64,000 bases of DNA from Planctomycetota bacterium. GTDB lineage: Bacteria > Planctomycetota > UBA8108 > JACQVS01. The position numbers were made by a program, and so were the translations under genes. A model generated the notes under the pieces. The model was not told the origin of the DNA and ran no database searches. It saw only the letters and a list, made by a program, of their open reading frames with translations. Shown here piece after piece: positions 2,324 to 55,039 of the stretch. The stretch spans positions 5,899-69,898 of the forward strand of contig JANQLS010000062.1 of assembly GCA_028280485.1 (NCBI GenBank), read 5' to 3'. Position 1 is the first letter of the stretch. Every line of letters starts with the position of its first letter.

Positions 2324-2349
2324 ATGCTGCGCTCTCTGCCTACGTGAAT

Positions 2350-6664: not shown

Positions 6665-6691
6665 ACGAAGCTTAAAACCAAAGATTTCAAA

Positions 6692-7993
6692 ATGAGTTTA
6701 CGCGAATCCCAAGAACTGTTTCAACGAGCCCAAAAAGTCATCCCCGGCGGAGTCAACTCTCCGGTGAGAGCCTTCGGATCCGTGGGAGGAGACCCGGTCT
6801 TCTTCGAACAAGGCCGAGGCTGCCATCTTTACGATGTGGCCGGTCGTGAATATATCGACGTGATGGCCTCTTGGGGACCTCTCATCTTGGGGCACGCCGA
6901 TTCGAGAATTGAAAGCGCCGTACGCCAAGCACTAGAAAAGGGGACGACCTTTGGTGCCTCGACCCAAAAGGAAGTTGAACTCGCCGAATTGATCGTTCAA
7001 TTCGTTCCTTCCATCGAGAAAGTTCGCTTGGTGAGTTCCGGTACTGAAGCGACGATGACCGCCTTGCGCTTAGCCCGAGGAGCCACGGGACGAGATCGCG
7101 TCATCAAGTTTGAAGGTTGTTATCACGGACACAACGACAGCTTCTTGATTAAAGCAGGATCCGGGGCCCTCACCCTGGGCGTGCCTTCAAGCCCGGGAGT
7201 TCCTAAAGCGCTCGCTGAACTCACCTCCAGCGCGAAGTTCAATGACTTAGCTTCGGTTGAAGCTTTGCTCAATGAACACAAAAATGAATACGCGGCGATC
7301 ATCGTCGAACCCATAGCCGGAAACATGGGAGTCGTTCCTCCCCAAGATGGATTCTTGCAAGGCCTCAGAAAACTCTCGACTGAACACGGTACGCTGTTGA
7401 TTTTCGATGAAGTCATCACCGGGTTCAGAGTGGGATCGGGTGGAGCTCAAGAACGCTTCGATATCGCTCCTGATCTCACGACCTTAGGTAAGATCCTGGG
7501 TGGGGGACTTCCGATGGGAGCCCTGGGAGGAAAAGCAGAACTCATGGATCAACTCGCCCCGACCGGACCTGTTTACCAAGCGGGCACCCTCTCGGGAAAT
7601 CCCCTCGCCACGGCTGCAGGTCTGGCGATGCTCAACACCATCAAAGCCGGTGGATCTGAGTTTTATCAAGATCTCGAGCTCAAAGGAAAAAGACTCCATT
7701 ACGGAATTCAGGAGGCGATCCAAGCCACTGGAGTCACCGCGCTCGTTCAGCGAGTCGGCAGTATGATGACGCTCTTTTTCAATGATGTTCCCGTTGTGAA
7801 TATGGATTCTTTGTCGAATCTAAAAACGGAGACGTACAGCAAATTTTTCCATGGCCTCCTCGAACGGGGCGTCTGTTTCCCTCCCTCTCAGTACGAAGCG
7901 TTCTTCGTCTCCCAGGCCCATCGCCTCGAGGATATCGATCGACTGATCGAAGTTATCGGGGATACGCTGAAGATGATTTCGGAAGCGGATTGA
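6692..7993 (+). CDS. hemL: glutamate-1-semialdehyde 2,1-aminomutase
   Basis: 433 aa with SQELFQRAQKVIPGGVNSPVRAF and a class-III aminotransferase PLP region (FDEVITGFRVG). Confidence 0.9.
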   Translation: MSLRESQELFQRAQKVIPGGVNSPVRAFGSVGGDPVFFEQGRGCHLYDVAGREYIDVMASWGPLILGHADSRIESAVRQALEKGTTFGASTQKEVELAELIVQFVPSIEKVRLVSSGTEATMTALRLARGATGRDRVIKFEGCYHGHNDSFLIKAGSGALTLGVPSSPGVPKALAELTSSAKFNDLASVEALLNEHKNEYAAIIVEPIAGNMGVVPPQDGFLQGLRKLSTEHGTLLIFDEVITGFRVGSGGAQERFDIAPDLTTLGKILGGGLPMGALGGKAELMDQLAPTGPVYQAGTLSGNPLATAAGLAMLNTIKAGGSEFYQDLELKGKRLHYGIQEAIQATGVTALVQRVGSMMTLFFNDVPVVNMDSLSNLKTETYSKFFHGLLERGVCFPPSQYEAFFVSQAHRLEDIDRLIEVIGDTLKMISEAD

Positions 7994-8061
7994 TAAGCTT
8001 TTTTTAAATCTAAGATGATTCTGTAGCGCCACCCCGAGACTACGATTTTTTTAACAAACCC

Positions 8062-8214
8062 TTAGTAAGCCCGGAGCGTCAGCGACGGGATCTCGTTGAG
8101 AAAATCCCCTTTGTGGCATGCTTTTATCGACGGCCAAGGCCTTTATGCTCGTCCCATAAAGCCTTTAATCAAAAGTTTAATCGTGTCCCGTCGCTTACGC
8201 TTCGGGCTAGTTAA
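8062..8214. repeat. Palindromic element copy 1 (subfamily B). The 29-bp terminal inverted repeats ttagtaagcccggagcgtcagcgacggga / tcccgtcgcttacgcttcgggctagttaa flank about 95 bp of unique sequence.
   Basis: Read directly from the sequence. The arms are reverse complements with two mismatches or wobbles. The element sits 3' of hemL. Confidence 0.8.
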
Positions 8215-8381: not shown

Positions 8382-11300
8382 ATGAGCCATCGTTGTTTTC
8401 CTCTTAGCTACCTACTTCTCGTTGCCGTTACTTTTTTAACATTAACGGTCGCCTCCCCACTGAATTCCGATGAACAAAATTATTGGATTCACACCTTTAA
8501 GCACCACGAACTCTCCGACAAGTTCTATTCAGAGGGAGCGACTTTTGGAGACATCGATGGCGATGGGAATAACGATATCATTTCGGGCCCCTTTTGGTTT
8601 GAAGGCCCCGACTTTAAAACTCGACACGAGTTCTACCAACCCAAAGTTTTCAACGTGAAGGGTTACTCCAATAACTTCTTCCCTTATGTCTACGACTTCA
8701 ATAAGGATGGCAAGAACGACATCCTCATCATCGGTTTCCCTGGGCAAGATGCATCTTGGTTTGAGAACCCCGGAAAAAAAACCACTCACTGGAAACGTCA
8801 CCTCGTTGTCGACGAAGTGAGCAACGAGTCTCCCTCCTTCACTGACATCGATAATGATGGTAAACCCGAAATCGTGGGGATTAGTAAGGGACGTTACGGC
8901 TACTCCGAATTCAATTGGGATAAGCCTCACGAGAAGTGTCGCTTCATCGCCATTTCTCCGGATCATAAATACGGCCGCTTCACTCACGGAATGGGAGTGG
9001 ATGATGTTAATGGCGATGGTCGAAAAGACCTTATCGAGAAAAACGGTTGGTACGAACAACCCTCCAAATTAGACGGTTCTTTGTGGAAGCATCATCGCTT
9101 TGACTTCGTCCCGGGTACAGCTCAAAAGGTTGGCGTTCCCGGCGCAGGTGGGGCTCAAATGTACGCTTACGATGTCGATGGGGATGGAGATCAGGACATC
9201 ATCACTAGTCGTAATGCTCATAACTGGGGATTAGTTTGGTATGAAAATTTAGCTTCGAATGGCGCAAAGGTGGGTCAATTTCATCCGCACCTTATCATGG
9301 GACGCCCCGATGAACCCGCCAAGTACTCCTTGCGAATCGCCCAATTGCACGGAATCGACTTAGTCGACATGGATGGTGATGGGCTCAAAGATATTGTTAC
9401 TGGAGTACGCGTCTGGGCTCACTATGGAGACAAATCTGCCGAACCTCCCGGGAAAGTTTATTGGTTCAAACTGGTCCGCCAAAAAGATAAGACGGTGGAT
9501 TGGGTTCCCCAAAAAATTGATCACAACTCGGGAGTCGGTGTCATGGTCAAAGCGGGGGACGTCGATGGAGATCAACTTCCCGATGTCGTCGTGGGAAACA
9601 AAAAAGGGATCTACTATTTAAAACACCAACGAACGAAAGCGACTCGCGCAGCCTGGAAGAGAACTCAACCCAAAGTCTTTCATACGAAAGGACTCTCTCC
9701 TCAACAAGCCGTCGAAGAGATGACTTTTCCCGAGGGCTTCGAAGTGGAATTAGCAGCCGGTGAACCTTTAGTTCACCAACCGGTAGCCTTCACCGTAGAT
9801 TCCAAGGGACGTCTCTGGGTAGCCGAGGCTCACACGTATCCAACCCGCGTCGGAGGCACCAAAGGAAAGTGGAACGCAGGTAAAGATAAAATCGTGATCT
9901 TAGAGGATCGCGATCAAGATGGAAGCTTTGAAACTCGCAAGGTCTTCATCGAGAACGTCAATCTCATCAGTGCTCTCGAAGTAGGATTCGGTGGAGTATG
10001 GGTTGGGGCTGCACCTTACCTATTATTCTTCCCCGATGCCGATAAAGATGATCGCCCCGACGGAGAGCCAAAGATTCTTTTAGATGGTTTCGGGATTCAG
10101 GACACCCATGAAACTCTCAACTCCTTTCGCTGGGGGCCGGATGGGTGGCTCTATTCCTGCCACGGAATCTTCACTCATTCCTTAGTGGGCAAACCGGGTA
10201 CGCCTGTAGATCAACGGACTCCAATGAATGCCGCTTACTGGCGCTACCATCCCCAACGACACGAAGTAGATGTCTTCGCCTGGGGAACGAGTAATCCTTG
10301 GGGCATGGATTTTAATGATTACGGGCAAGCCTTCAGCTCTGCTTGCGTGATTCCTCACCTCTACCACGTTATCCAAGGAGCACGCTACGTACGACAGGCT
10401 GGGCGACACTTCAATAAATACGTTTACGACGATATCAAGACCATCGCCGACCATCTACACTTTGTGGGAAGCCTCCGCGATCACGCTTGGTGGGGCCACG
10501 AACCGAGAACTCCTCAAAACACTTTAGATGCCGGGGGAGGCCACGCTCACTGCGGGATGATGGTTTACCTGGGCGATAGTTTTCCAGATACTTACCGTAA
10601 CCGTCTCTACATGAATAATATTCATGGGAACCGAATCAATGAAGAGATCACCATTAGAAATGGCTCCGGTTATATCGGCACGCACAGCCCAGATATTGTC
10701 ATCGCCAATGATGCTTGGTTTCGAGGTATAGCCTTAAGATTGGGCCCAACTGGAGATTTCTATTTCTCGGACTGGTACGACAAGAATGCGTGCCATCGAA
10801 CGAATCCTCTAGTTTGGGATCGAAGCAACGGACGTATCTATCGCTTGAGTTACGTAGGACCTTCAGGCAAAGCCCGAAGACTTAAAGTTGATCTCCAGAA
10901 AAAGAGCAATCGCGAACTCGTCGACCTTCAACTTCACAAAAACGATTGGTTTGTAAGAACCGCGAGAAGAATTCTTCAAGAACGTCAACCCGACCCGACG
11001 ACTCACAAGAGCTTGATGGGAATCGTATTTAACAACAAAGACACTACGAGAAGGCTTCGAGCCCTTTGGGCCCTCCACGTTACTCAGGGACTTCAAGCAG
11101 GACATCTCGGGGTCCTGCTGAAGGATCAAGATGAATATATCCGAGCTTGGGCGGTACAACTCTCCTTAGAGGAGCCAGGAAAATTCAGCTCACTCTATCC
11201 CAGCATCGCCAAATTGGGAGCTCGTGAGCCATCACCAACAGTAAGACTTTACTTAGCTTCTGCACTCCAGCGCTTACCGGAGAATTTCGGTAAGCAGTTA

Positions 11301-13064
11301 GCTCAGGCTCTTGTCAAGTACGGTGAAGATGCCACCGATCACAACTTACCTCTGATGCTCTGGTACGGAATTGAAAATCTAGTATCCAAAGATCCTCAGT
11401 GGGGCATGAGCATAGCTGCTGAATCCAATGTTCCGACCGTCTCCCGATTTACGGTAAGGCGATTAGCTGCTGAAGTACGCCATCTCGATCAAATCATTCA
11501 AGCGATCAATCGCACTCCGAGTGAATCCTTCCTCCATTTAATTTTGGATGAAACGATCGAAGCGCTCAAAGGGCACGCGACCTTGGGGATGCCGAAAAGC
11601 TGGGGACTCGCCTTCGATAAACTCATCGCTCTCAACGATGCCAAGATCGAGAGCAAGGCTGAAACCATCGCCGTCAAATTTGGCGATAAGAGAATCTTCC
11701 CCCTCCAGAGAAGAGTCTTGGGGGATTCCAGCCGACCGATCGACCGAAGAAGGCACGCATTAAAAGTGTTGCTTACGGGAGATGACCAAGAGAGTATTCC
11801 CATTTTTCATCGAGTTCTTGCGGAACCCGCCCTTCGATCTGAAATTCTTAAGGGATTGTCTAAATTCAATCACGCCCAAACTCCCGCTGCGATTCTTAAG
11901 GTTTACCCCGAACTAACAGTCAAAGAAAAACTGAGCGCCTTAAACACCTTAGCATCTCGAAAACCCTACGCAGAAAAGTTAGTTCAAGCCTTAGAAAAGG
12001 GAGACATCGCCCGGAAAGATTTAAGTGCCTTTATCGTACGTCAAATCGATCAGGTAGCCGACGATACTCTCCGTTCGCGCTTAGAGAAGGTCTGGGGTGC
12101 GATACGAAAAACTTCAGATGATAAGATTCGAGCGATCGCAAAGTACAAAGAGCTCTTCAATAAAAAGGCGTTGGCAGCTGCTGACCTTTCCAAGGGACGA
12201 GATGTCTTCAGTAAAACGTGCCAGAGTTGTCACCAACTCTTCGGGACGGGTGGGAAGATCGCTCCCGACCTCACGGGATCTAATCGAGGGAATCTCGATT
12301 ACATTTTAGAAAACTTGGTCGACCCGAATGCGGTCGTCGGGAAGGATTACCAACTCAATAATTTCATCACCAGGGATGGTCAGTTGATCTCGGGTTTAGT
12401 GGCGAGTGAATCCGACACCGCCTTGACGATTCAAACTCTCGATAAAGAAGTCGTCGTTGCTAAGAACAATCTTCTCCGCCAAACCCTTTCTCCGAATTCG
12501 ATGATGCCGGAAGGCCTCTTAGATGAACTCAAACCCGCCGATGCGGTGAATCTGATCGCGTACTTAGCGAGTCCCATTCAGGTTTTACAACGGGGGAGTG
12601 ATCTCAAGGTCGATCCGAAAACCCATAAGATTCCTGGCGTAATCGAGGGAGAATCACTCAAGATCAGTAAGCCGACGGGAGGCTCGGTCTCCATTCAAGG
12701 AATGAACAATTTCGGGGCTGGCAAATGGAGCGGCAACAAGCATGTTTGGTGGGTTCGAGGTAAACCGGGAAGCAAAATTCAATTTGAGTTCCCCGTCAAA
12801 AACGATGGCTTGTATCGAATCGAACTCGGTATGACGATGGCTGTAGATTACGGCGTATTCAAATTTAGAGTCGATGGTGAAGACATCGGGGGAGCCGTCG
12901 ATTTGTACGATAAAAACGTCATTCCCACCGGCCCCGTCGTCATCGGTGAGAAGAAACTCTCACCCGGCAAACACATCTTGGAAGTCGAGGTGGTCGGATC
13001 CAATCCGAAAGCCGTCAAAGCTCATATGTTCGGCTTGGATTACATTTATTTGAATCGGCAGTAG
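8382..13064 (+). CDS. Secreted 1560-aa multidomain protein. It joins an N-terminal FG-GAP/integrin-alpha-like beta-propeller, a PVC-type putative membrane-bound dehydrogenase domain (TIGR02604-like), HEAT repeats, a CxxCH heme-binding domain (TIGR02603-like) and a C-terminal beta-sandwich.
   Basis: Signal peptide [26 protein letters not shown]. Seven DxDGDGxxD-type repeats ([25 protein letters not shown], and others). Dehydrogenase motif [34 protein letters not shown]. Heme motif [21 protein letters not shown]. Confidence 0.8.
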   Translation: [1560 protein letters not shown]

Positions 13065-13086: not shown

Positions 13087-13256
13087 TTAGTAAGCCCGAA
13101 GCTTTAGCGAGGGATCGGAACGCCAACCAAATAAAAAAGCGCCCTACCGTCCCAGGACTCGCGTGAGCGAATCCCCGAACAACCCACTTCGCCTAACAAC
13201 GTAATTAAAAAATCAGGTCTTAATTTCGCACTATCCCTCGCTAAAGCTTCGGGCTT
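13087..13256. repeat. Palindromic element copy 2 (subfamily A). Its arms are tttagtaagcccgaagctttagcgaggga / tccctcgctaaagcttcgggctt.
   Basis: The arms are a perfect 23-bp inverted repeat around a ~120-bp unique centre. It lies 3' of the 1560-aa gene. Confidence 0.8.
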
Positions 13257-13454
13257 CCCTGGCGTAATTTGCATTAAAGGTCTATAGAATTTGTTAGTTC
13301 GATGTTGAGCGTTGAGTCCTATTCTCCCTCCAGTCCATCCGATAAACCCCTGAATACCATAAATCAGCCTAGTCAGCTTCATTTCTTTACTCTATGGATC
13401 GATGTATCGATAGAACGGTCTCTATCTCCATTCCCTTAGATAAAGAAGTGATCC

Positions 13455-14666
13455 ATGCCTTCAAGTCCAAGCACTCAGAATCCGAATCCCGACCTCAGGT
13501 CTGAAGCGAGTGAACTCTTAGTTCGCCTCTGTCAGATGATTCGCGGCCCCCTAGTCCAGTTGTTAGAAAGTGAAGATGCGAAAGCGCAAATTCCCGGGAG
13601 CCCCTTAGCTCTGGCCCTACGCGAATCGAGCTACCTCGTCAAACTACTCGGGCCTCTTCAAGATCATTTTGAATTGATCACGGGTTCTTTTTCAGCCGAT
13701 CCTCAAGCGACTTCGATCGTTGAATTGATCAAAAACCTAGTCGAAGACTTTCGAACGGAAGCTGAAAAACGTCAACTTCACCTCGGCTTCTTATGTGATC
13801 TCAATCCCGATCATACAGTCGCCATCTTCGACAGTGGTCGACTCGCTCAAATCGTTTCGGCGTTCATTTCAGCCGCCATTCAAACGACGCGTCAAGGCGG
13901 AGTTCAAATCAAATTGAATCAATTGGAAGAACAATTTCAGATCGAAATTGAAGACACCGGAGAAGGCTGGCCCGTTACCTGGCACTCTTTTTTACAAGAA
14001 CGAGACACGGATTTTTCTGCGGAGAAATTGTTAGAAAGTGAATTGCCCACTTTAAACCTCCTCGTAGCTCAAGCTTTAGCTAAAGCCCTTCATATTGAGC
14101 TCGAATTAAAAACAGATCCTAAGTCGGGAACTTTGGTGAGACTCGTTCTACCCCAGTTAGAAAACGCTACCGATCTCACTTCTTTTGAAGACTCCGTGAT
14201 TGAAAATTCAAATGAACTCGAGCGAGAACCTCACTCTCAGAATTTCCGACCCGGTTTAGCGGCTCGAGTTCTCGTGGTCAATGACACCCGCGAGGATCTC
14301 GATTCCATCTACAAAGCCTTAAGTTCGACGGGCGCTCGAGTCAGCTTGGCGAATTCCGGCTTAAAAGCGATAGAAATCATCGAATCGAGCCAAAAAAATC
14401 AAGAGCCCATCGACGCCATCTTGCTCGACATCGTGATGGAAGGGATGGATGGGCGAGAAGTGACTCAAAAACTTCGGTCCGCCGGATATACTCTTCCGAT
14501 CATCGCGCTCACCGATTATGCTCTACGAGCTGAACGGGAAGCCTGCCTTGAGGCGGGCTGTGATGGCTTCATCACTAGGCCTTATGACTTAAGTAAAATG
14601 GTTTTGATGATCAAAGCGGCTTTAGCGAGACGCAGTTCAGAGTTAGCTCCCGTTCCTGGCACCTGA
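13455..14666 (+). CDS. Response regulator with a C-terminal CheY-like receiver domain and an N-terminal degenerate histidine-kinase-like ATPase domain
   Basis: Receiver motifs VLVVNDTREDL...ILLDIVMEGMDG...PIIALTDY...GCDGFITRPYD. The N-terminal half has a DTGEG G-box-like motif. Confidence 0.7.
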   Translation: MPSSPSTQNPNPDLRSEASELLVRLCQMIRGPLVQLLESEDAKAQIPGSPLALALRESSYLVKLLGPLQDHFELITGSFSADPQATSIVELIKNLVEDFRTEAEKRQLHLGFLCDLNPDHTVAIFDSGRLAQIVSAFISAAIQTTRQGGVQIKLNQLEEQFQIEIEDTGEGWPVTWHSFLQERDTDFSAEKLLESELPTLNLLVAQALAKALHIELELKTDPKSGTLVRLVLPQLENATDLTSFEDSVIENSNELEREPHSQNFRPGLAARVLVVNDTREDLDSIYKALSSTGARVSLANSGLKAIEIIESSQKNQEPIDAILLDIVMEGMDGREVTQKLRSAGYTLPIIALTDYALRAEREACLEAGCDGFITRPYDLSKMVLMIKAALARRSSELAPVPGT

Positions 14667-14712
14667 GCATCAAAGCTGACACTCTTTGAAAGTCCTTGGT
14701 TAAACCACAAAC

Positions 14713-15807
14713 ATGACTCGAAGAACTGAAGAACAAGCACGAGAACTTTTAGAAGAACTCACCCTCTGCCCGGGCATACCCGGTTTCGAAGGCCCCGTGA
14801 GATCTTTGGTCACAAAAACATTAGAGGGACTTTCGAACACCCAGGTCTCAAGAGATGGATTGGGAAGCTTATTGTTCGAAAAATCAGGAACGAGTTCCGG
14901 ACCTCGAATCGCCCTCGACGCTCACATGGACGAAGTGGGTTTTATGGTTCAGAGCATCAGTGAAAACGGAACCATCAAGTTCGTCACCCTCGGCGGCTGG
15001 TGGGGACATGTTCTCTTAGCTCAACGGGTCAACATTCTGACCGACAGCGGCACGATCCCTGGAGTCATCGGAAGTAAGCCCCCTCATTTCCTTTCAGCTT
15101 CCGAACGCAATAAGGTTCAAACCCCCGAGTCGATGTTTGTCGATATCGGAGCTTCCTCCCGAAAAGAAGCCGAGGAATGGGGAGTTCAAGTTGGGGATGG
15201 AATCGTTCCTCACTGTGAATTCATACCGCTTAAAAACGAGAAGATATTAAGTGCCAAGGCCTTCGATGATCGAGTCGGCGTCGGCCTTCTCTTAGAGACG
15301 ATGCTCGGCTTAGAAAATGTAGACCACCCCAATACCACAGTCGGAGTTGCTGCCGTACAGGAAGAAGTGGGTTGCCGAGGTGCCGTGACCTCATCTCATT
15401 TATCCAATCCTGATGTTGGAATTATTCTAGAAGGAACTCCGGCCGACGACACGCCCGGTTTTCCCGTTGATGGTCGCCAAGCGGTTTTCGGCAAAGGACC
15501 TCAGATTCGATTCTTTGATCCCACCGCAATCTCTAATCGTAAGTTGGTACGGAAGGTTCAGGAGGTCGCTGAAGCCAACGAAATCCCGATTCAAATTGCC
15601 GTACGAAGAACGGGAGGGACCGATGCGAAGTCGATCCACATTCACGGCAGGGGAGTTCCCACTGTCGTGATCGGTGTACCAGCACGATATATTCACACCC
15701 ACGTCAGCATGATCCACATGGATGACTACGAAGCAGCCAGGGAACTTTTAGTTGCCTTGGTGCAGTCATTAGACGAAGCGACGGTGAATGCGCTTCATGA
15801 GGATTGA
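14713..15807 (+). CDS. M42-family metallo-aminopeptidase (FrvX/CelM-like)
   Basis: 364 aa with DAHMDEVGFMV, AFDDRVGV and VQEEVGCRGA metal-binding motifs. Confidence 0.8.
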   Translation: MTRRTEEQARELLEELTLCPGIPGFEGPVRSLVTKTLEGLSNTQVSRDGLGSLLFEKSGTSSGPRIALDAHMDEVGFMVQSISENGTIKFVTLGGWWGHVLLAQRVNILTDSGTIPGVIGSKPPHFLSASERNKVQTPESMFVDIGASSRKEAEEWGVQVGDGIVPHCEFIPLKNEKILSAKAFDDRVGVGLLLETMLGLENVDHPNTTVGVAAVQEEVGCRGAVTSSHLSNPDVGIILEGTPADDTPGFPVDGRQAVFGKGPQIRFFDPTAISNRKLVRKVQEVAEANEIPIQIAVRRTGGTDAKSIHIHGRGVPTVVIGVPARYIHTHVSMIHMDDYEAARELLVALVQSLDEATVNALHED

Positions 15808-15832
15808 TGAGGCAGACAACGCCTAAAAATCA

Positions 15833-15988
15833 TTTAGTTAGCCCGAAGCGCTAGCGAGGGGTGAAAGAATAATTCTACTTTAAAGTTTACTAATGATGGT
15901 TTTGAGTCGTCTCCACGAAACGCAGGTTCAAGGGGAATGAATCTTAAATCAACGCTTTGTCCCCTCGCTAGCGCTTCGGGCTAGTTAA
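15833..15988. repeat. Palindromic element copy 3 (subfamily A). Its arms are tttagttagcccgaagcgctagcgagggg / cccctcgctagcgcttcgggctagttaa.
   Basis: Perfect 26-bp inverted repeat with a ~100-bp unique centre. It lies 3' of the M42 peptidase gene. Confidence 0.8.
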
Positions 15989-16126
15989 CACGATGGCTCA
16001 CCTCATAAAAATATCCCCTAAAGGCCATTTCGCAGACGGCGATTGTCCTTTAGGGGATTTTCTTTGGTGGATCTCTAGTAGAGGAAAATCCGTTCAGTGA
16101 TTAAGAGTTAATGCAAAGCTTAACTT

Positions 16127-18394
16127 TTACTTCTCTACATCTAAGCGGAAGACATCCCAACTTTCTCCAGAACGATTGGAGCAGAAGATGATGCCTTCAA
16201 AGTCGAGATCCAACCGACTCGAAGGTACAAATGTGGGGTCGAGATCGTCAGCGAAGGACTTGGTGAGGATCTCTTCTTCTTTCTTTTTGATATCGTAGAG
16301 GACGACATCGTATCCGGTATCACTACGGGCAATTTTTCGAGAAAACGCCAAATGATCTCCATGGGGACACCAGGCGAGACCGCGAATCTGATCGTCGGAA
16401 TCTAATGAAATCGGGAGTTGTTCAATTTCTTGGGTTGCGATGTTCATGATGAAGACCTTCGCTCCTCCCAGGCTGTTCGAAACGAACGCTACATGATCTC
16501 CCTTAGGTGATACTGCGGGATAGCTTCCGATGCGATGGGTTCTGAATTCCGTTCCATCGGTACGAACACTACAGATCAAGGCTTTTTGGCCCTGAGCTTC
16601 AAAGCCTAATCGAGCCTTGATCTTTTCGTTTTGTTCTGCCGAAGTGTATTGTGGTTCCCAACGTCGTTCGAAAAAGAGAGTTTGAGGGTCAGAATTCAAA
16701 CTGAAAGCCAAAGAGTTTACAGCGATGTTCATATTCGCGGGAAGCACGGATTCAAGCTTAGAACTCCAGAGAACATGTTTGTAGATGCTGCCACCAAATG
16801 CGCCCACAAATTGATCCCTCGTACAAGAGATGAAGAGTGTGGGATCTCCCTTACCAGCGGGGGCCCAAGCTAAATCGATATCGTGAGCTAAGAGCAATTT
16901 TTGGCTGTCTTCACGAAGTTTGGCATCCGGAAGAAGTTTAAACTCACCCTTGCCTGATGTTCCCGGTTCGACTTCTTTTCTGAAGAAACTTAGATTCCAG
17001 GCGACATTCGATTCAATGGAATCCTGCGGAAGTGAAGCTACCGCTAAATACTGACCATCATTGGAAAGAGCAAAACGGGCTTCGTTTTGTCCTTCACGGG
17101 CTAAGACCTTCGAGAGAGGATAAATTTCAGCGGGTTCTTCTAAAATTTCAAACTCGACGGCAGGGCTCCAGAATTGTTGATCTTCACTCTTCACGCGTAA
17201 GCGGTATTTATTTCCTCGCGTAAAAATACCAGTCGTCTCGGGAATGTATAAATTACCGACGACCAATTTATTCACGGGATTGATATTCTGACCGGATTCA
17301 TCAAAGGTGGAAATCTCAACAGTGAACGATGTGTTTGCGATATTTTCTTCCAGAGTGGCTTCTGTGAATTGCCACTTGATTCTAGGTCGCTCAGAAACCA
17401 AACGAGCACCTGAAGACGGGCTCATAATCGAAGGGACAGGGGGAGCGAAGCGGAAAGTTCTTTCCGTCATCTCGGACTGAACTTCCTCTCCGTTGTGACC
17501 GGTGATCTCAACTTTATAAACTCCCGGAGAAGGAAGAGGTTCTTCGAGGCGAAGAGAGGTTTGATCCACATCGGTTGTAAAAATACTTTTAACAGGCTCA
17601 CCCTCAGCCCCCGCAGTCTTCACGACAAATGTATATCGACTGGCTCCCGGTACTGGATCCCATTCAAATTGAGGACGAGGTTCCTTCAAGGGGCCGGTTT
17701 CTTCAGAAGGAGTGAGGACGATGGGGGTGGCCAAGATCAATGTATGTTCAGAGATCGACCAGTTTGAAACCAACCTCTCTTGACCTTCGGTTTCTTGACC
17801 TTCCGATCGAATACGAATGAAAAAAGTTTCACCCGCCTGGAAGGGGGGATCGAAGCTCTTCTCAAAAATCCCATCCGATTCATCGGCTGAAGTCAATTGA
17901 TGAGTGAGAACCACCGTATCGAAGGTCATCTTCGAAGAAAGTTCAAAGGTGTAACTTTCTGCACCGGGAACGGATTCCCATTTTAAATTGGCGCTCTCGC
18001 CGTAGACCCAAGATTCTTCGGCATCCCGAATCAACTCAGGAGCAGACAATCCCTCAAGAGTTGTTTCTTGCTGATTCGTATCGAGGACACCTTCAGGATT
18101 TCCTTGATTCTCAGGTTGAGTCGTCGTTGGCGCGCAACTTCCAAGAAAGAGTGCGATAACTAACATGAGCGTGAGAGCGAAGGTTTGCTCGCATCGTCGG
18201 GTGAGAGAGTGGAGGCAGTTCAGACTGCCACTAGCGCTAGTCAAAGCGGCTAAGATTTTGGAGTATCTCATTCTGTTTCTCTTCTTAAGTTCCCCAATCC
18301 AGTTTTGAATGGAGTGCTTGAAAGGGTAAGCTAAATCCTCTGAGGACTGTATATCGCATGATTTCAATAAATCAGTGCATACAGTGAACCGCAT
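16127..18394 (-). CDS. Secreted/lipoprotein-like protein with Ig/FN3-like repeats and a C-terminal TolB-like (PD40) beta-propeller
   Basis: C-terminal PD40-type repeats (YPAVSPKGDHVAFVSN, LAWCPHGDHLAFSRK, IIFCSNRSGESWDVFRL). Hydrophobic stretch LTLMLVIALFLGSC near the N-terminus. The true start is probably the internal Met at about 18271 (MRYSKIL...). Confidence 0.65.
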   Translation of the reverse strand: MRFTVCTDLLKSCDIQSSEDLAYPFKHSIQNWIGELKKRNRMRYSKILAALTSASGSLNCLHSLTRRCEQTFALTLMLVIALFLGSCAPTTTQPENQGNPEGVLDTNQQETTLEGLSAPELIRDAEESWVYGESANLKWESVPGAESYTFELSSKMTFDTVVLTHQLTSADESDGIFEKSFDPPFQAGETFFIRIRSEGQETEGQERLVSNWSISEHTLILATPIVLTPSEETGPLKEPRPQFEWDPVPGASRYTFVVKTAGAEGEPVKSIFTTDVDQTSLRLEEPLPSPGVYKVEITGHNGEEVQSEMTERTFRFAPPVPSIMSPSSGARLVSERPRIKWQFTEATLEENIANTSFTVEISTFDESGQNINPVNKLVVGNLYIPETTGIFTRGNKYRLRVKSEDQQFWSPAVEFEILEEPAEIYPLSKVLAREGQNEARFALSNDGQYLAVASLPQDSIESNVAWNLSFFRKEVEPGTSGKGEFKLLPDAKLREDSQKLLLAHDIDLAWAPAGKGDPTLFISCTRDQFVGAFGGSIYKHVLWSSKLESVLPANMNIAVNSLAFSLNSDPQTLFFERRWEPQYTSAEQNEKIKARLGFEAQGQKALICSVRTDGTEFRTHRIGSYPAVSPKGDHVAFVSNSLGGAKVFIMNIATQEIEQLPISLDSDDQIRGLAWCPHGDHLAFSRKIARSDTGYDVVLYDIKKKEEEILTKSFADDLDPTFVPSSRLDLDFEGIIFCSNRSGESWDVFRLDVEK

Positions 18395-18927
18395 TCTATT
18401 TCCCTAAGAACGCATTTCATTCATTCTCATCTAATTGTCATCTATTAGAAAACGACTTTAATCTTTAGCTACCGGTCTTCACTCCTGCCAAGATTCCCAA
18501 TTGTGATCTCTCTTATTCTCGCACACCTCTTCCTCTCTTAAAGATCCACTCTCCCGAAGTGTCTCTCTCCTGAAGAAAGAGAAGAAAACGAGCTTTATGA
18601 ATAGAGACCATCATCTTGGGCTATATCATATACAAGGAAGGCGAGAGTCTCCACCCTTCAATCTCCTCAAATCTTACTAGGGTGAATTCTGATATAAGCC
18701 GGGATTCAAGGAATCCGGTCCGTAGCAATTTCGAGTGAATCTCCCAAAGCTTGGGATAAGAGCTGGTAATGCTTCTCGACCTTCTATATCTTAAGCTCGT
18801 AGGGAAAAAATAGACTTTTTTCACCGTGATCCGCTCCATATAAGACCCCGAACAGTTCCTGATTCGAATTCCACAGGGCTAAAATGGACCCACAAATGAA
18901 CTCATCTTCCTCGGGAGAGCTCAAGCG

Positions 18928-19803
18928 TTGATGATCACAACTGGTAAATTTCAGAGATGGAACAGAGAGACTTTGTTAAATAAACTATCGCTTCGTTGCT
19001 CGAATTCGTTACTTCATTCGAGGCCGATACCCTTCCTTCTCTTCTTGTTCATTCTTTTAGGCAGCCAATGGTCCTGCCAAAAGAATACTCCTCAAAACTC
19101 ATCGAAGGCCTCTCAGCCCCAAAATGGAACGGATCCTATGAGCGACAAACGAAAGCTGATGGTTCAACAACTTTCCGAGGGCGAAATTGATGATGCCCGA
19201 GTCTTAAAGGCGATGAGCCAAGTTCCCCGCCACGAATTTATCGAAGAGAAGTATCAAGATCGGGCCTACAACGTCAATACTCCGATTCCCATCGGAGACA
19301 ACCAAACAATTTCCGCTCCTGATATCGTTGCGATCATGACTCAAGCTCTCGAACTCGAACCTCATCACAAAGTACTCGAGATCGGTACCGGTTCGGGCTA
19401 TCAAGCGGCTGTTTTGGGGGAGTTGGTCAAGGAGATTTATTCGGTGGAGATTCGACCGACATTAGCCCGACAAGCTCGTAGCCTCTTAAACAAATTAAAA
19501 TCAGAGGGAAAGCTTCATTTTAATAAGATCGAAGTCATCGAAGGGGATGGGTACAAGGGCTTCCCTGACCAAGCTCCTTACGATGCCATCATCGTCACCG
19601 CAGCGCCCAAAAAGATTCCGGTTGAGCTTCAAAATCAGCTCAAAGTGGGGGGGCGCATGATCATCCCCGTCGGGGAATTCTACCAAGAACTTCAACTCCT
19701 CGAAAAAGTCGATGCCGGAAACGGGCAGACTACCTTTAAAGAAAAAATCATCCATGCCGTTCGCTTTGTGCCCATGATCCAGCAACCCCAATCGGATTCA
19801 TAA
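18928..19803 (+). CDS. pcm: protein-L-isoaspartate O-methyltransferase with N-terminal signal/lipobox-like extension
   Basis: VLKAMSQVPRHEFI...VLEIGTGSGYQAAVL...GDGYKGFPDQAPYDAIIVTAA. A hydrophobic leader ...LLFLFILLGSQWSC precedes the catalytic domain. Confidence 0.8.
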   Translation: MMITTGKFQRWNRETLLNKLSLRCSNSLLHSRPIPFLLFLFILLGSQWSCQKNTPQNSSKASQPQNGTDPMSDKRKLMVQQLSEGEIDDARVLKAMSQVPRHEFIEEKYQDRAYNVNTPIPIGDNQTISAPDIVAIMTQALELEPHHKVLEIGTGSGYQAAVLGELVKEIYSVEIRPTLARQARSLLNKLKSEGKLHFNKIEVIEGDGYKGFPDQAPYDAIIVTAAPKKIPVELQNQLKVGGRMIIPVGEFYQELQLLEKVDAGNGQTTFKEKIIHAVRFVPMIQQPQSDS

Positions 19804-19815
19804 GGATATTCTTGG

Positions 19816-20868
19816 ATGGCGCCTATCACCTTCGGGGGAAATGACTATCTCGATCTAGCCCGACATCCTAAAGTGCTCGAAGCTTCAATCGAAGCTCTGA
19901 GTCGTGAGGGATTATCGAGCTGCGCCTCTAGAGTATCGGTGGGAACCACTTCGGATCACGTCGAACTCGAAACTCAATTAGCTGAGTTTTTGGAAGTCGA
20001 AGAAGTTGTGGTGCTCTCTTCGGGATATCTGGCTGTACTCGCCGCTTTTGATGCCATCGATTTAGCTGAGGTTGAGTCCCCAACGGGCTATCTCCATTCT
20101 GATGCTCATCCCAGCTTACTGAAAGGGGTCAAAGCTCGTGGACTTCAGGCGGATCCATTCACCTCGAACACGATCCCCAAATCCCAGCAAAACACGGCAT
20201 TCTTCGCTAGCGATGCCTGTGATGGCTTCAATGGAGTGGTGCGTCCGATCCAAGAATTTACCTTCAGTTCCCCCTTAAGTGCGACCCCTCTTATCGTTGA
20301 TGATTGCCACGGCATCGGAGTCTTTGGACCCAAAGGAAGGGGCACTCTCGCTCATTTTGGCTTCGGAGATGAAAAGATCATCCAAATCGGCTCCTTTGGG
20401 AAAGCATTCGGCTCAGCGGGGGGCTTCGTCGCCGGTTCACATAATAAGATCTCTCAAATTCGATCGGGTCCCAATTACCAGGGGTCGACCGCCCTCTCTC
20501 CCGTTTTAGCGAGTGGCGCCCTGGCCGCGCTGAGAATTTTAGAAGAGGAACCCGAGCGAGCAGAGCAACTGATTCAAAAAGGAATAAAGCTTGAATCCAC
20601 GTTGATCGAAGAAGGACTTCCCGTCATCTCACCCGAAGCCAATGAATGCTCGTTTCCGGCGGTGATCACTCTCTCATTGCCCAATCCAGAAATAGCACAA
20701 GCCCTCGCGAGTGATCTTCAATCGCGAGAAATCGATATAGCCCACTTTACTTACGCCTCTAGTGCGAGTTCTTCGAAACTGCGCATTCCATTGTCGAGTC
20801 GACACACCGAAGATGACTTGGAACGCTTGTTGGAGGGTTTGGTGGCTTGTTACTCGCCGACATATTAG
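19816..20868 (+). CDS. Class-II aminotransferase of the alpha-oxoamine synthase family (BioF/KBL-like 8-amino-7-oxononanoate synthase)
   Basis: 350 aa. PLP-lysine motif GSFGKAFGSAGGFVAGS. The N-terminus FGGNDYLDLARHP is typical of BioF-like enzymes. Confidence 0.65.
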   Translation: MAPITFGGNDYLDLARHPKVLEASIEALSREGLSSCASRVSVGTTSDHVELETQLAEFLEVEEVVVLSSGYLAVLAAFDAIDLAEVESPTGYLHSDAHPSLLKGVKARGLQADPFTSNTIPKSQQNTAFFASDACDGFNGVVRPIQEFTFSSPLSATPLIVDDCHGIGVFGPKGRGTLAHFGFGDEKIIQIGSFGKAFGSAGGFVAGSHNKISQIRSGPNYQGSTALSPVLASGALAALRILEEEPERAEQLIQKGIKLESTLIEEGLPVISPEANECSFPAVITLSLPNPEIAQALASDLQSREIDIAHFTYASSASSSKLRIPLSSRHTEDDLERLLEGLVACYSPTY

Positions 20869-20902
20869 ATCTAAAATCTCGATTAGATTTGGAATACAAA
20901 TT

Positions 20903-20963
20903 TAACTAGCCCGAAGCGCTAGCGAGGGGAAATTTCCTCTCGCTAGCGCTTCGGGCTAGTTAA
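20903..20963. repeat. Palindromic element copy 4 (subfamily A, minimal form). Its arms ttaactagcccgaagcgctagcgagggg / cctctcgctagcgcttcgggctagttaa are separated by only 5 nt.
   Basis: A 61-bp near-perfect palindrome lying exactly between the convergent genes 19816..20868(+) and 21066..22436(-). It probably acts as a bidirectional terminator-like hairpin. Confidence 0.8.
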
Positions 20964-21065
20964 CAGGCTTTGATGTTTTGAATGGATTAAATGAAAAAAC
21001 GCCCTAAATGGTTAGAAACCTTCAGGGCGTTTTTAATCTACATAGAACCTTAGAACTCCGATCGA

Positions 21066-25644: not shown

Positions 25645-25680
25645 TCCTTCCTTCTGAACCTTACTACTAAAAACAAAAAA

Positions 25681-25717
25681 GGCGACTCTCTTCGAGAGTC
25701 GCCTTTTTTGTTGGTTT
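25681..25717 (+). terminator. Rho-independent terminator
   Basis: ggcgactctcttcgagagtcgcc hairpin followed by a TTTTTTGTTGG run, 35 nt after the transporter stop codon. Confidence 0.8.
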
Positions 25718-25976
25718 CAAGTTCACCCCCGTAGGGGCAGGGCCCATTAACGGCTAACGCCAAGAAAGGGCCTGCCCGATTCCTTGATAGCCGAATTCAA
25801 TCCCCAAACATTTCATAATGCTCGGGAAACGGGCGCCCACGAGGGGTACCCGTAGCCGAACTTGTCAAAGTTTGGCTGAATACGTTAGCTGGCCAAATTT
25901 TTACAAATTCGGCTACTACGAAAGACATTGATTTTAAGTTAATTCACAAGGACGGTTGTGGAGTTTAAGCAATCCA

Positions 25977-26119
25977 TTAATGAGCCCGGAGCGTAAGCGA
26001 CGGGATCCGTCATCGTGATAAATTCACATTAGACATTTTTTAGGTGAGCTAAGGAGTTTACTATCCAACCGCGAAATACTCTAGCAAAGTCCCGTCGCTC
26101 ACGCTCCGGGCTAGCTAAT
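25977..26119. repeat. Palindromic element copy 5 (subfamily B). Its arms are attaatgagcccggagcgtaagcgacggga / tcccgtcgctcacgctccgggctagctaat.
   Basis: It lies between the convergent transporter(+) and metX(-) genes and has a unique ~85-bp centre. Confidence 0.8.
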
Positions 26120-26127
26120 AACAGTGC

Positions 26128-27243
26128 TTATTTCCGCTTGAAATACTCCAAACCATCCCTCAACGCCACATTGATCTTCTCAGTCTCGATCAAAAAGGCA
26201 TCGTGACCGTGGATACTTTCGATGCAAGTGTGGCGAACGGGGCGTCCCGCTTCGTAGAGGATTTTGCGAACTTCTTCTACTTGATAAGGAGGGCAAAGAA
26301 TATCGGAGGAAAAGGAGATGAGCTCTAAGGGACTCTCGATCCTTAATACGCCTTCTTCGTAACTTTCACAATCACCGGTCAGGTCGTGAAGATCCATTGC
26401 GCGGGAGTAATTGAGGTAAGTATTGGCATCGAAACGCCCGACAAACTTTTGGCCTTGATAGCTCAGGTAACTCTGAACTTGATAGCTCCCGCGACTGAAA
26501 TGAAGATCGGGGTCTTTAACGTCTCGCTGAAATCGCTGAGTAAACTCTTCATCGCTTCGATAAGTGATCATGCCGATCTGACGAGCTAAACTCAATCCCT
26601 TTTGAGGGGGATTGGCGGGGGAGTATCGTCCTTCATTCCAGTTGGGATCATCCATGATGGCTTGACGCTGAACGTGCCTCAACGCGATGGTTTGAGGAAA
26701 GGATCTCCCCGGCGCGCCCAGACTGATGGCTCGTTGAACTTCAGCGGGATACTTCGCCGCCCACTCCATCGCGATCATGCCTCCCATCGATCCTCCGATG
26801 AGCTGAATAGGACCTGTCTTATCCGGCCCCAAACCGATACCGCGAAGGAACAATCGAATAGATTCGATCAGATCACCGAGGACGAGTTGAGGAAAATCAG
26901 CTGAATAGGGTTGGGCAGTTTCAGGGTGGACTGAGATGGGTCCCGTCGAACCGTAACACCCTCCTAAGAGGTTGGGGCAGATCACCAAGTGACGGTCGTA
27001 ACCGAGGGGAGCCTCGGGAACAAATAGGTCTTCCCACCAGCCTTTCTCTTCCTCTCCCTCGCGACTAACGACTCGACTCAATCCGCTGAGTGCATGAAGA
27101 ACGAGAACAACATTCCCACCTCCCTCAGCGAGCTCTCCCCACGATTCATACGCGAGATGAAAGCCCGGTAAGGTCTCTCCTGAACTCAGTTCAAAAACGG
27201 AGTCGTAATTCCAGGTTTTCCAAGTGGGAGGTATAGGATTCAC
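26128..27243 (-). CDS. metX: homoserine O-acetyltransferase
   Basis: 371 aa alpha/beta hydrolase with VVLVLHALSG and IGGSMGGMIAMEWA nucleophile-elbow motifs and MetX-type overall length. Confidence 0.8.
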   Translation of the reverse strand: MNPIPPTWKTWNYDSVFELSSGETLPGFHLAYESWGELAEGGGNVVLVLHALSGLSRVVSREGEEEKGWWEDLFVPEAPLGYDRHLVICPNLLGGCYGSTGPISVHPETAQPYSADFPQLVLGDLIESIRLFLRGIGLGPDKTGPIQLIGGSMGGMIAMEWAAKYPAEVQRAISLGAPGRSFPQTIALRHVQRQAIMDDPNWNEGRYSPANPPQKGLSLARQIGMITYRSDEEFTQRFQRDVKDPDLHFSRGSYQVQSYLSYQGQKFVGRFDANTYLNYSRAMDLHDLTGDCESYEEGVLRIESPLELISFSSDILCPPYQVEEVRKILYEAGRPVRHTCIESIHGHDAFLIETEKINVALRDGLEYFKRK

Positions 27244-29160: not shown

Positions 29161-29239
29161 GCGAAAGAACGTTCAACATCGAAATCAAAGGCTCGCCGAA
29201 CCTTAAACACCTTTTACGCCAGGGAAGCCCGAACCTTTA

Positions 29240-29442
29240 GGGAGTGCGTTAGCCGAAGGCTAACTTGCACGATGGAGCGAAGCGACCATTATTACTGCGG
29301 GAGTGCGTTAGCCGAAGGCTAACTTGCACGATAGAGCGAAGCGACCATTATTACTGCGGGAGTGCGTTAGCCGAAGGCTAACTTGCACGGAGCAACGCGA
29401 CCATTGGTACTGCGGAGCGAAGCGACCATTATTACTTCTGCG
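29240..29442. repeat. Tandem array of a 59-bp unit, about 3.5 copies (gggagtgcgttagccgaaggctaacttgcacgatggagcgaagcgaccattattactgcg)
   Basis: Copies begin at 29240, 29299 and 29358 (period 59), followed by a degenerate partial copy. Each unit has a gttagcc-GAAG-ggctaac hairpin. The last unit overlaps the stop codon of the minus-strand gene 29432..30043. Confidence 0.85.
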
Positions 29443-34223: not shown

Positions 34224-34239
34224 AGAACACGAATGTTCT
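34224..34239. promoter_or_regulatory. Perfect 16-bp palindrome AGAACAcgaaTGTTCT 40 bp upstream of the nrdJ ORF start; candidate operator
   Basis: Read from the sequence. It has GAAC-N6-GTTC architecture, reminiscent of LexA/NrdR-type dyad operators, but its identity is unknown. Confidence 0.25.
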
Positions 34240-34279
34240 AGTCTTTGGATAAGGTGAAAAGGTGAAGGGTAAGTAGATT

Positions 34280-37980: not shown

Positions 37981-38196
37981 TTAGGTAATCGGTTCAAAGT
38001 AATCCGCACATACTTATTCCAAGCGCGAAGCGTAAGCGAGTGCCATGCGTTTAACTCATCATCGAGGCTTGTGATGGATTTCAGTTCGGCGTGAAACCTG
38101 GTTTTTGGGTTAGTTTGATTTTATTTACGTTGCGGCTTGCCAACCCTCGTTGACACTTCGGGCTTGAAATTGATCACTAAGTGATTCATTGGGCTA

Positions 38197-39835: not shown

Positions 39836-39968
39836 ATTAGTAAGCCCGGAGCGTAGGCGACGGGATACGTCATTGCGATGAATCCGCATAGGTACGTCCT
39901 CAGGGATTAAATTCCCACCCACGCATTACTTTAGCATTGTCCCGTCGCTTACGCTCCGGGCTTATTGA
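39836..39968. repeat. Palindromic element copy 6 (subfamily B). Its arms are attagtaagcccggagcgtaggcgacggga / tcccgtcgcttacgctccgggcttattga.
   Basis: Lies in the 1.25-kb intergenic region upstream of the A2M gene. Its centre is a unique ~75-bp sequence. Confidence 0.8.
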
Positions 39969-40906
39969 TATTGATTCTTAACTCTTTAACCTATTTTCCC
40001 AATGAACTGATTCCCATCACAAGCCTTGATTTTAAGTCAAACGCGTGGCACCCGCTAAGGCTTCGTGCGAGGAATGAGATATTGAAATACTGTTCCGGCT
40101 CACGGGATCAGCTGACTACTTTGCAACGTTTACCCGTAGTTATTTCAAAAAATCTGAATCATAAGTGAACCTAAAAAAATATCGACATCCTATAAAGTTA
40201 ACTCTTTAACGAAGCCGAAAATGACATCGTTTTAAGAAATAAAAACTTACGTCATCAATTGAGCGTTTCGGAATCGAACGCTTAAACCGAACTCATTTTT
40301 TGACATTGAAACAGAACGAAATAACGTTAGGATCTTTTTTGTGAAGTGAAGAGAAGGGTCTCCCTCCAGTCACCTTCTCACCTTGCTATGCTTATATTTT
40401 GTTTCTGTTCATCAATAGGAACAAATTCGTGCGCCAGTAAGAGAACGCACAAAAGCACCCGTGCTCATTTGCACATCCTATTAGATTTACTTTGTAGATT
40501 TCTCACCCCGCTTTGTGAGTCACAGCTCAGCTTGTGCCTCGTATTGATAGTTTTTTGGTGAGTTACTCCATAGTTGTCTACAAACACGCATTTTTTCTAG
40601 CTAAGTCTCTTTGCCAGTCTCTTCGTCTACGCTGTCTTGGTAGGCACTGCTTTCGCTGGCTGATCTGCTGATCTATTGTCAATAAGGCAGCTAAAGCTGC
40701 ACTTAGCGATATTCGTATCTGTATTTCCGTTCTCCGCCCGGATCTACCCAAGAAGGGCTTGAGTGCTCACAACTGAGGCTCGAAATCCATCTCAGGAGAT
40801 CCCATTGGACTGAGGGGGGATAGGCACATGTCTATCGTCGTTCTATCCCCCCAAAGCCCATATTTCGAAGAAGATTGAAGATTGAATTTCAGAGGAGTGA
40901 GCTCTC

Positions 40907-51133: not shown

Positions 51134-51353
51134 ATGCAGTCGAATCCAGCCGGCCTCCATTTCAAGCCCGAAGTGTTAACGAGGGATATCTTCCTTATAC
51201 CCTCAATAGGCCAAATGCTTGAGGAGTGATTCATCGACGAGTTGGAAAAATGGATCGCACCACGATTCCAAGACGTTCTTCAATATTAGAGCGAAACGAG
51301 GCACTCGCTGACGCTGCATGCTTAAAATCATTGTCTATAAGCGACAATACACT

Positions 51354-55015: not shown

Positions 55016-55039
55016 AAGCCCGAAGCTTTGGCGAGGGAT
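55016..55039. repeat. Solo arm of the palindromic element family (caagcccgaagctttggcgaggga) with no partner arm
   Basis: Matches the subfamily-A left arm. No reverse-complement arm lies within 300 bp downstream. Confidence 0.6.

Follow-up and report, generated by a model that had tools for sequence, protein, structure and literature searches.

In a 64,000-nt stretch of the genome of a Planctomycetota bacterium (contig JANQLS010000062.1, positions 5,899 to 69,898; 47% G+C), hereafter called the window, a palindromic element recurs between genes. The element is built from a 22-23-nt hairpin unit with a constrained fold, which is extragenic and multi-copy, is arranged in inverted doublets and is present in many lineages of the Planctomycetota. 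With moderate confidence, from the comparisons reported below, we read these elements as REPIN-like doublets (inverted pairs of repetitive extragenic palindromic, REP, sequences) of a REP-like family matching the hairpins of class 3 HuH-Y1 enzymes, probably moved as single-stranded DNA (ssDNA).

We searched the window for the core AGCCCGAAGCNNTAGCGAGGG, allowing at most 3 mismatches, and obtained 16 matches against 0.01 expected from shuffled sequences; the pattern of the second type of unit (type B, see below) gave 8 matches against 0 expected. The arms in the window define a core of about 21 nt, AGCCCG[A/G]AGC-NNNN-GCGA[G/C]GG. The inventory amounts to seven inverted doublets and three solo copies, hence 17 units in 64 kb, all intergenic, and an inverted-repeat finder returned six clean doublets with arms of 23-34 nt, 87-100% complementary and separated by 0-117 nt. 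All the copies named in a first-pass annotation of this DNA are present, and we added to them the doublet at 38017-38168 and two solo units, one at 51165 and a degenerate one at 29226 (Table 1).

To cover other genomes, we scanned one genome per species of GTDB (596 Gb) with the pattern AGCCCGRAGCNNNNGCGASGG and obtained at least 118 loci, cited by numbers with the prefix L; the counts given below for the wider sample refer to the loci listed. Among the matches listed, 97 of the 118 loci have Planctomycetota labels in their record titles, and the lineages are Planctomycetaceae, Planctomycetia, Pirellulales, Gemmatales, Isosphaeraceae, Thermoguttaceae and Phycisphaerae. Since a few hundred single matches to this pattern are estimated to occur by chance in 596 Gb, isolated matches in other phyla mean little, while paired matches are real. 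The core is kept between genomes and, by inspection of the listed loci, about 10 nt of 5′ flank appears different in each genome. REP-type repeats are usually genus- or species-specific.

Units were found solo, in direct tandem arrays (L024, L041, L063) and, more often than either, as inverted doublets. About 37% of the exact seeds had no partner within 300 nt, a fraction to be read with the caveat that 10-15% of seeds per direction would reach a partner with 6-7 mismatches by chance. The doublets face inward: with at most 3 mismatches allowed, a partner lay on the 3′ (GGG) side of 82 seeds and on the 5′ side of 8. Spacers elsewhere are mostly 3-40 nt long, and the window is unusual in that the cores are 78-121 nt apart in six of the seven doublets. 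In a plasmid collection, BLAST found nothing that matched a consensus doublet.

Positions 13239-15988 of the window are reproduced exactly by a Logan short-read contig from this organism, which starts within one element and stops at the last base of the next; breaking at two elements is the behaviour of a dispersed repeat in short-read assembly. In practice, the repeat is a cause of breaks in short-read assemblies of Planctomycetota and a possible marker of the phylum.

Two folds of one hairpin unit

We numbered the core as A1 G2 C3 C4 C5 G6 R7 A8 G9 C10 N11-14 G15 C16 G17 A18 S19 G20 G21. The first-pass annotation had divided the elements into two subfamilies, A and B, and had attributed the differences between them to compensatory changes between the two arms of a long stem. 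Both types do exist among the window arms. In single arms of the listed loci, positions 7 and 19 read A7/G19 in 118 cases, G7/C19 in 80, A7/C19 in 14 and G7/G19 in 6, the scan pattern having left all four combinations open, and this covariation holds in solo arms as it does in paired ones. Position 22, which was outside the pattern, shows no constraint in A units, whereas 64 of 76 B units have G there. With positions 7 and 19 covarying within one arm, even where there is no second arm, the A/B changes are not compensation between arms, and that part of the annotation is not supported. Apparent compensatory arm changes in palindromic repeats can mirror a fold within each arm together with doublet copying, and not selection on a long RNA stem.

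Two structural isoforms of one 22-nt hairpin, related by a register shift, are a better description of A and B. In type B (CCCGGAGC..GCGACGGG) the pairs are C3-G22, C4-G21, C5-G20, G6-C19, G7·A18, A8·G17, G9-C16 and C10-G15, closing a loop G-Y-N-A. In type A (CCCGAAGC..GCGAGGG) the register is shifted by one, with C3-G21, C4-G20, C5-G19, G6·A18 and A7·G17, and A8 is bulged. ViennaRNA returned the same two folds for the AGCCCG strand, with RNA energies of -12.1 kcal/mol for B (z -3.0) and of -7.6 to -8.0 kcal/mol for A, and a weaker or different fold for the complementary strand.

In the B register 95.8% of the cells of the alignment are paired, against at most 41% in slid registers, and 11 cells show double changes, where shuffles gave 2.0±1.2 (0 of 500 shuffles reached this number); the pair 6-19 is G-C in 71 units and C-G in 9. 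In the A register 96.9% of the cells are paired and double changes occur at three pairs (0 of 500 shuffles): the pair 5-19 is C-G in 106 units, U-A in 3 and G-C in 2, these last being two published rows of Planctomyces limnophilus that we added to the alignment, and the pair 10-15 is C-G in 116 and U-A in 2. Among the variants, CCCCGAGC..GCGAGGGG and CCCCAAGC..GCGCGGGG have C6-G19 in place of G6-C19, and CCTGAAGC..GCGAAGG has T5-A19. Two window units, at 38144 (the right unit of the doublet 38017) and 51165, have T10-A15, which replaces C10-G15 in the upper 2-bp stem. One unit of the L095 doublet at 4812-4918 (AGCCCCCGGCGGAAGCCGGGGG) has the tandem G·A/A·G of the B unit swapped for Watson-Crick C-G/G-C. 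A core common to Planctomycetia and Phycisphaerae with two interconvertible folds makes a clean natural dataset on hairpin recognition by a HuH-Y1 enzyme or another reader.

These results bear on the possibility that the elements are double-stranded DNA sites or cruciforms for a host protein, e.g. a nucleoid-associated protein or topoisomerase, as in the BIMEs (bacterial interspersed mosaic elements) of E. coli, and would be kept by the host for chromosome organisation. The conservation of the core over many Planctomycetota lineages, with flanks and spacers that vary, and the strictly extragenic position of the window units agree with such sites. Compensation within the arm and a register shift, however, are expected of a folded single strand and not of a duplex site, the two strands fold unequally, and no candidate protein was identified; we consider this explanation improbable.

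Doublets, spacers and transcript orientation

In the window the doublets are 4 A/A, 3 B/B and 0 A/B, which has a chance of about 1/35 under random assortment, and the two loops are identical in 3 of 7 doublets, against 11 of 113 comparisons between elements (about p=0.03). It had been claimed that within each copy both arms carry the same variant. This is true of the type in all seven doublets, and of CTTTAG, found twice in 13087, and CGCTAG, found twice in both 15834 and 20902; it does not extend to the B copies 8062, 25976 and 39836, which read CCCGGAGCGTNAGCGACGGGA with loops GT[C/A/G][A/G] and whose arms differ in the tetraloop (GTCA/GTAA, GTAA/GTGA and GTAG/GTAA, respectively), nor to the right arm of 8062, which is a hybrid. 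The likeness of the arms favours copying, or doublet formation from sister units, in this genome, and the option that whole elements are copied as units, also put forward in the first-pass annotation, fits the REPIN model. Doublets that spread or persist as units would explain why the type is the same on both arms and why the two loops of an A copy are identical.

The wider sample holds 82 doublets, of which 32 are A/A and 15 B/B, the rest including rarer variants and never a clean A/B pair. Some doublets pair unlike units, namely B with a C-type unit in five genomes and A with the T5-A19 variant in an array; they have 2-4 mismatches in the long stem, and each arm keeps its own fold. Conservation therefore does not lie in the long stem. 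Structural selection on a long stem had been offered as the other option for the window copies, with independent variation of the arms in a larger sample named as the refuting result, and the doublets of unlike units are a result of this kind. Outside the window, loops are identical in 59% of doublet arms and in 66% of units of different elements of the same locus. The fold of the palindrome 20902, calculated as ssDNA, has -35.8 kcal/mol (z -13).

The spacers of the units 25983 and 39843 are homologous (55 of 78 positions identical, z 8.3), those of 8068 and 25983 marginally so (z 2.7), and the others are unrelated by the shuffle test. The homology of all the window spacers, an impression given by a MAFFT alignment, failed this test and was discarded. 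We compared the elements also with classical MITEs (miniature inverted-repeat transposable elements), that is, deletion derivatives of insertion sequences whose terminal inverted repeats are read by a DDE transposase. Arms of 23-34 nt, elements of 60-170 bp, all intergenic, and the homologous interiors of the B copies 25976 and 39836 resemble such elements. Against this, we saw no target-site duplication at any copy, and the other interiors are unrelated. The arms also occur solo (the 37% of seeds given above) and as direct tandem arrays, and in none of the loci does a transposase gene lie between facing arms 0.5-3 kb apart. Moreover, DDE terminal repeats do not characteristically contain a hairpin with covariation inside the arm. 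The MITE reading is largely refuted, and we hold it to be very improbable.

A further explanation is that the elements act in RNA, as a cis element of the 3′ untranslated region, either through the GNRA-type hairpin or through the long hairpin of the doublet, which would block exonucleases, attenuate read-through or bind a protein, as proposed for E. coli REPs; selection on RNA structure would then keep the arms complementary. Most elements start 23-70 nt past a stop codon, all three solo units of the window are sense to the upstream gene, and the GNNA loop and G·A pairs lie on the top strand, with type B stable as RNA; these points speak for it. In the first-pass annotation, G·T mismatches between arms (G·U in RNA) were taken as a sign of selection on an RNA hairpin. 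On the + strand of the window we did count 10 G·T mismatches, with 6 A·C and 7 transversions, but 10 against 6 is no excess (about p=0.45). Two of the wobble positions, besides, do not count as independent events, since the same GT/AC difference in the outer flank is present in copies 8062 and 15834. In the listed loci, where each doublet was oriented by its upstream gene with the crude gene calls described below, the sense strand gave 27 G·U and 25 A·C mismatches (p=0.89), with 48 transversions. The G·U counts do not favour an RNA hairpin.

The orientation of solo units in the wider sample also runs against an RNA element: between co-directional genes we found 8 sense and 7 antisense, and 6 against 6 where one neighbour was known, approximate values since gene orientation in the loci was assigned by a crude ORF (open reading frame) picker based on G+C at third codon positions. 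In the loci with several solo units (L002, L015, L017, L034, L068, L086, L105), all the units point the same way in 7 of 7, though they are not sense to the genes in any consistent manner, which hints at a local cue other than transcription, e.g. the replication strand or local duplication. Moreover, the elements have no U tract and separate terminator-like hairpins lie nearby, doublets of unlike units break the long stem, and Rfam 15 has no family for the element, either in the window at the gathering score or in an E-value scan of 20850-21050. In the window, a tRNA and the Acido-Lenti-1 RNA alone reach the gathering score, both away from the element, and at the element itself there are generic miRNA-hairpin matches, all below threshold. 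An RNA cis element is, in our view, unlikely as the primary explanation; an RNA role may be a secondary, acquired function.

Relation to REP sequences and to class 3 HuH-Y1 hairpins

Among known repeats, two groups are compared with the unit first. The hairpins most similar to the unit are those reported beside the genes of class 3 TnpA-Y1 (HuH-Y1) proteins (Table S1 of Quentin, Siguier, Chandler & Fichant 2018, BMC Genomics 19:475, PMC6006769). In P. limnophilus, the gene of the class 3 protein ADG69454.1 is flanked by the hairpins CACGAGCCGGAAGCGTGAGCGACGGGT and ACGAGCCGGAAGCGTCAGCGACGGGCATTT, ..AGCCGGAAGCGTGAGCGACGGGT, and the hairpins of Solibacter and Legionella are CCGAGCCGCGACCGTAAGGGAGCGGA (PMC6006769). 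The same work places the class 3 family mainly in Planctomycetes, Acidobacteria and some Proteobacteria, a taxon range that includes the phylum studied here, and describes its hairpins as atypical secondary structures, reminiscent of REPs and present in about 600 copies in Solibacter. The P. limnophilus hairpin (AGCCGGAAGCGTGAGCGACGGG) is identical to the window units at 19-20 of 23 positions (20 of 23 for type B), and its stem differs from type A at the pair 5/19 alone, where G5-C19 replaces C5-G19, a compensatory change. All of them, Legionella and Solibacter included, are built alike, a stem of 3-4 bp being followed by a GA/GA internal loop, then by a 2-bp stem and lastly by a GNNA loop. 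The published survey covers copies adjacent to the genes in few genomes, whereas the window units are far from any such gene, form inverted doublets, belong to a family of many lineages and include A, B and C isoforms. Matching hairpins beside class 3 genes were thus already published (PMC6006769); what is new is the spread over many Planctomycetota lineages, the register-shift pair of A and B and the doublets of unlike units. The exact unit sequences had no match in the papers searched, and we found no experimental work on class 3 enzymes.

The second group is represented by the REP, BIME and REPIN sequences of E. coli and Pseudomonas (Ton-Hoang 2012, PMC3333891; Bertels & Rainey 2011, PMC3116915; Di Nocera 2013, PMC3733652). 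Like them, the unit is a short imperfect palindrome with a stem-loop, it has many extragenic copies and its inverted doublets are over-represented. REPs and REPINs likewise occur as singlets, as arrays and as tail-to-tail dimers with variable spacers that form long hairpins (PMC3733652), compensatory changes on both sides of the REPIN hairpin are common (PMC3116915), and the dimers of unlike units found here resemble those of the Y and Z REPs of E. coli. The planctomycete unit differs in having no GTAG or CGTC tag, in the conserved tandem G·A mismatches of the stem and in a core common to many lineages of a phylum and not to one genus. The GTAG-20 and GTAG-21 repeats of R. baltica (Di Nocera 2013) are apparently other sequences, judging from the peptides that they encode, as given in the supplement of that work.

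The mechanism that we propose is by analogy with the IS200/IS605 elements (IS608, ISDra2), whose irregular hairpins are read on one strand by a HuH-Y1 enzyme acting on ssDNA. The module is the 22-23-nt unit 5′-AG-CCC(G)-GA(A)-GC-[G-Y-N-A]-GC-GA-(C)GGG-3′, predicted to fold on the AGCCCG strand into a 3-4 bp G-C stem, a tandem G·A/A·G, a 2-bp GC stem and a GNNA tetraloop, and the palindromic elements are inverted doublets of it, with the GGG ends inward and a spacer of 0-120 nt of variable sequence. A class 3-type HuH-Y1 enzyme would recognise the folded top strand as ssDNA and would cut and join beside the hairpin, like the TnpA of IS200/IS605 and the RAYTs (REP-associated tyrosine transposases), and the doublets would spread or persist as units. 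In IS200/IS605 the hairpins bracket the transposase gene in the same orientation, whereas the planctomycete doublets are inverted and have no gene between them. Correia/NEMIS, ERIC and RPE-type palindromes are, like the present elements, small intergenic inverted repeats that give long hairpins when transcribed; they are copied as whole elements with conserved interiors, Correia with a TA duplication, whereas here the 22-nt unit alone is conserved.

Several results weigh against this mechanism and against the kinship with class 3 hairpins. No HuH-Y1 gene of any class was found in the window, and the class 3 motif (NHVH ... YV[VI]xEQ) is absent from the 118 loci and from 80 further metagenomic loci, as judged by a motif regular expression and a home-made Y1 profile run over all the ORFs of the window and of the 198 loci. 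The 80 metagenomic loci are those of relatives of the Planctomycetota RAYT of L041, one RAYT lineage, and none has a flanking unit with at most 2 mismatches; we assign this lineage as class-2-like from its YxxNP-type Y motif. The 5′ foot is NNAG (A1 94%, G2 90%), preceded by a weak A-T/C-A-C, and not GTAG or CGTC; in the window the feet are GTAAG and ACTAG, not the CnGA reported for class 3. A foot of this latter type, CAGA-G, does precede the stem in several genomes (e.g. L003, L007, L030), with other feet in the window and in many genomes. DNA parameters give the same folds, but at -2.3 to -5.2 kcal/mol their stability is only marginal, with z values that are not significant. Lastly, the sets of units were gathered by a sequence pattern, which kept most stem positions from varying freely, and the covariation comes from a modest number of variants, some of which possibly represent one event copied many times.

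A bolder reading is that structural selection has kept the hairpin in many lineages of the Planctomycetota, and its architecture also in Acidobacteria and Legionella, and that the hairpin is the partner of class 3 HuH-Y1 enzymes; we regard it as a tentative possibility. If true, this partnership would be by far the most widely conserved association of a REP-type repeat with an enzyme, and there could be a host function in chromosome or mRNA 3′-end biology, beyond selfish spread. Judging from sequence likeness, a repeat family of many genomes may here be linked to class 3 enzymes.

The L041 locus has both a RAYT gene and units of the family: three direct units with a spacing of 33 nt and a fourth, inverted one (6677-6813) lie about 620 bp downstream of the RAYT gene at 7433-7999 (NCBIfam REP_Tyr_transpos, NF047646, 81.6 bits), which is itself flanked by a different GC-rich hairpin (GCGGCAGCCCTGCTGCCGC). 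A RAYT-like ORF (PF01797; NF047646, 69.5 bits) was also seen in L023, from a Planctomycetota metagenome-assembled genome, at 1066-2379 (-), in frame inside a FabZ gene, with the N- and C-terminal halves of FabZ on either side of it via Ala/Gly/Pro-rich linkers. In L068 (3364-5395), identical units with the loop GGAA lie on the - strand on each side of an ORF at 3909-5240 (+) that resembles by eye a group II intron reverse transcriptase, with YADD-type motifs; the units were considered as domain V of a group II intron, and this was rejected on length and sequence.

Copies in the window and their surroundings

The coordinates of all the copies are given in Table 1. The neighbours of the elements are ordinary chromosomal genes, encoding aminotransferases, PCMT, Leu/Phe-tRNA-protein transferase, an MFS transporter, LpxA, a class II ribonucleotide reductase, an alpha-2-macroglobulin and a 1560-aa DUF7133/FG-GAP/cytochrome c protein, and no transposase was found among the window genes scanned. 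Several elements lie between convergent genes. Ends similar to GTTAA led us to consider integron attC sites, which we rejected in view of the large housekeeping neighbours in both orientations; no integrase was found in Pfam scans of 20 flanking genes, and the R''/R' core sites (RYYYAAC / GTTRRRY) fit only occasionally.

Table 1. Units and doublets of the element in the 64-kb window (positions are those of the window)
Element	Coordinates	Units or strand	Sequence or loops	Arms and spacing	Gene context
Type B doublet	8062..8214			23-nt arms, 91% complementary; cores 99 nt apart	Between aminotransferase gene and giant DUF7133/FG-GAP gene, both +
8062 doublet, left unit	8068-8090	+	CCCGGAGC-GTCA-GCGACGGG		
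8062 doublet, right unit	8186-8208	-	CCCGAAGC-GTAA-GCGACGGG; hybrid, A7 with C19		
Type A doublet	13087..13256	13093-13113 (+), 13235-13255 (-)	Rare TTTA loop on both	24-nt arms, 100% complementary; cores 121 nt apart	Begins 23 nt past stop of + gene 8382-13064
Type A doublet	15834..15988	15840-15860 (+), 15962-15982 (-)	GCTA loop on both	34-nt arms, 88% complementary; cores 101 nt apart	Between convergent genes, 27 nt past stop at 15807
Type A doublet	20902..20963		GCTA loop on both	31-nt arms, 97% complementary, no spacer; 62-nt near-perfect palindrome	Begins 34 nt past stop at 20868; then separate A-run/T-run hairpin
Type B doublet	25976..26119	25983-26005 (+), 26090-26112 (-)	Loops GTAA, GTGA	30-nt arms, 87% complementary	Ends 9 nt from stop of - gene 26128-27243
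Degenerate solo unit	29226..29246	+	AGCCCGAACCTTTAGGGAGTG		
Degenerate doublet	38017..38168		Left unit AGCGCGAAGCGTAAGCGAGTG, right unit AGCCCGAAGTGTCAACGAGGG		
Type B doublet	39836..39969	39843-39865 (+), 39940-39962 (-)	Loops GTAG, GTAA	30-nt arms, 90% complementary	Divergent intergenic region
Solo unit, T10-A15 variant	51165..51185	+	AGCCCGAAGTGTTAACGAGGG		32 nt past stop of + gene 49325-51133
Solo type A unit	55017..55037	+	AGCCCGAAGCTTTGGCGAGGG		103 nt downstream of tRNA gene 54843-54914

Hairpins with an A run and a T run, similar in look to canonical terminators, are present near the elements and separate from them at 20995-21034, 25672-25712 and 37943-37979. The elements themselves were considered as terminators and this was rejected, as they have no T run and a simple terminator scan leaves them unflagged. 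Within the spacer of the doublet 13087-13256 there is a terminator-like hairpin with a T run at 13141-13158 on the - strand, both flanking genes being on the + strand.

The Acido-Lenti-1 RNA (RF01687, 38.8 bits against a gathering score of 37) lies at 51356-51410 (-), about 170 nt from the solo unit 51165. A stretch of 2.7 kb with no long ORF (31554-34280) separates a CCA/poly(A) polymerase-like gene (-) from the class II ribonucleotide reductase gene, and an Rfam E-value scan of it gave nothing.

The degenerate unit 29226 runs into a 59-nt tandem repeat (three copies, 29240-29415, 92% matches), beside which a second array found by Tandem Repeats Finder (period 25) extends to 29436, and further small hairpins are present in the array region. 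The whole array, 29226-29436, lies between lpxA-like and cobalamin adenosyltransferase genes, and each copy of the 59-nt repeat contains a perfect hairpin, GTTAGCC-GAAG-GGCTAAC, plus a unit-like piece, TGGAGCGAAGCGACCA.

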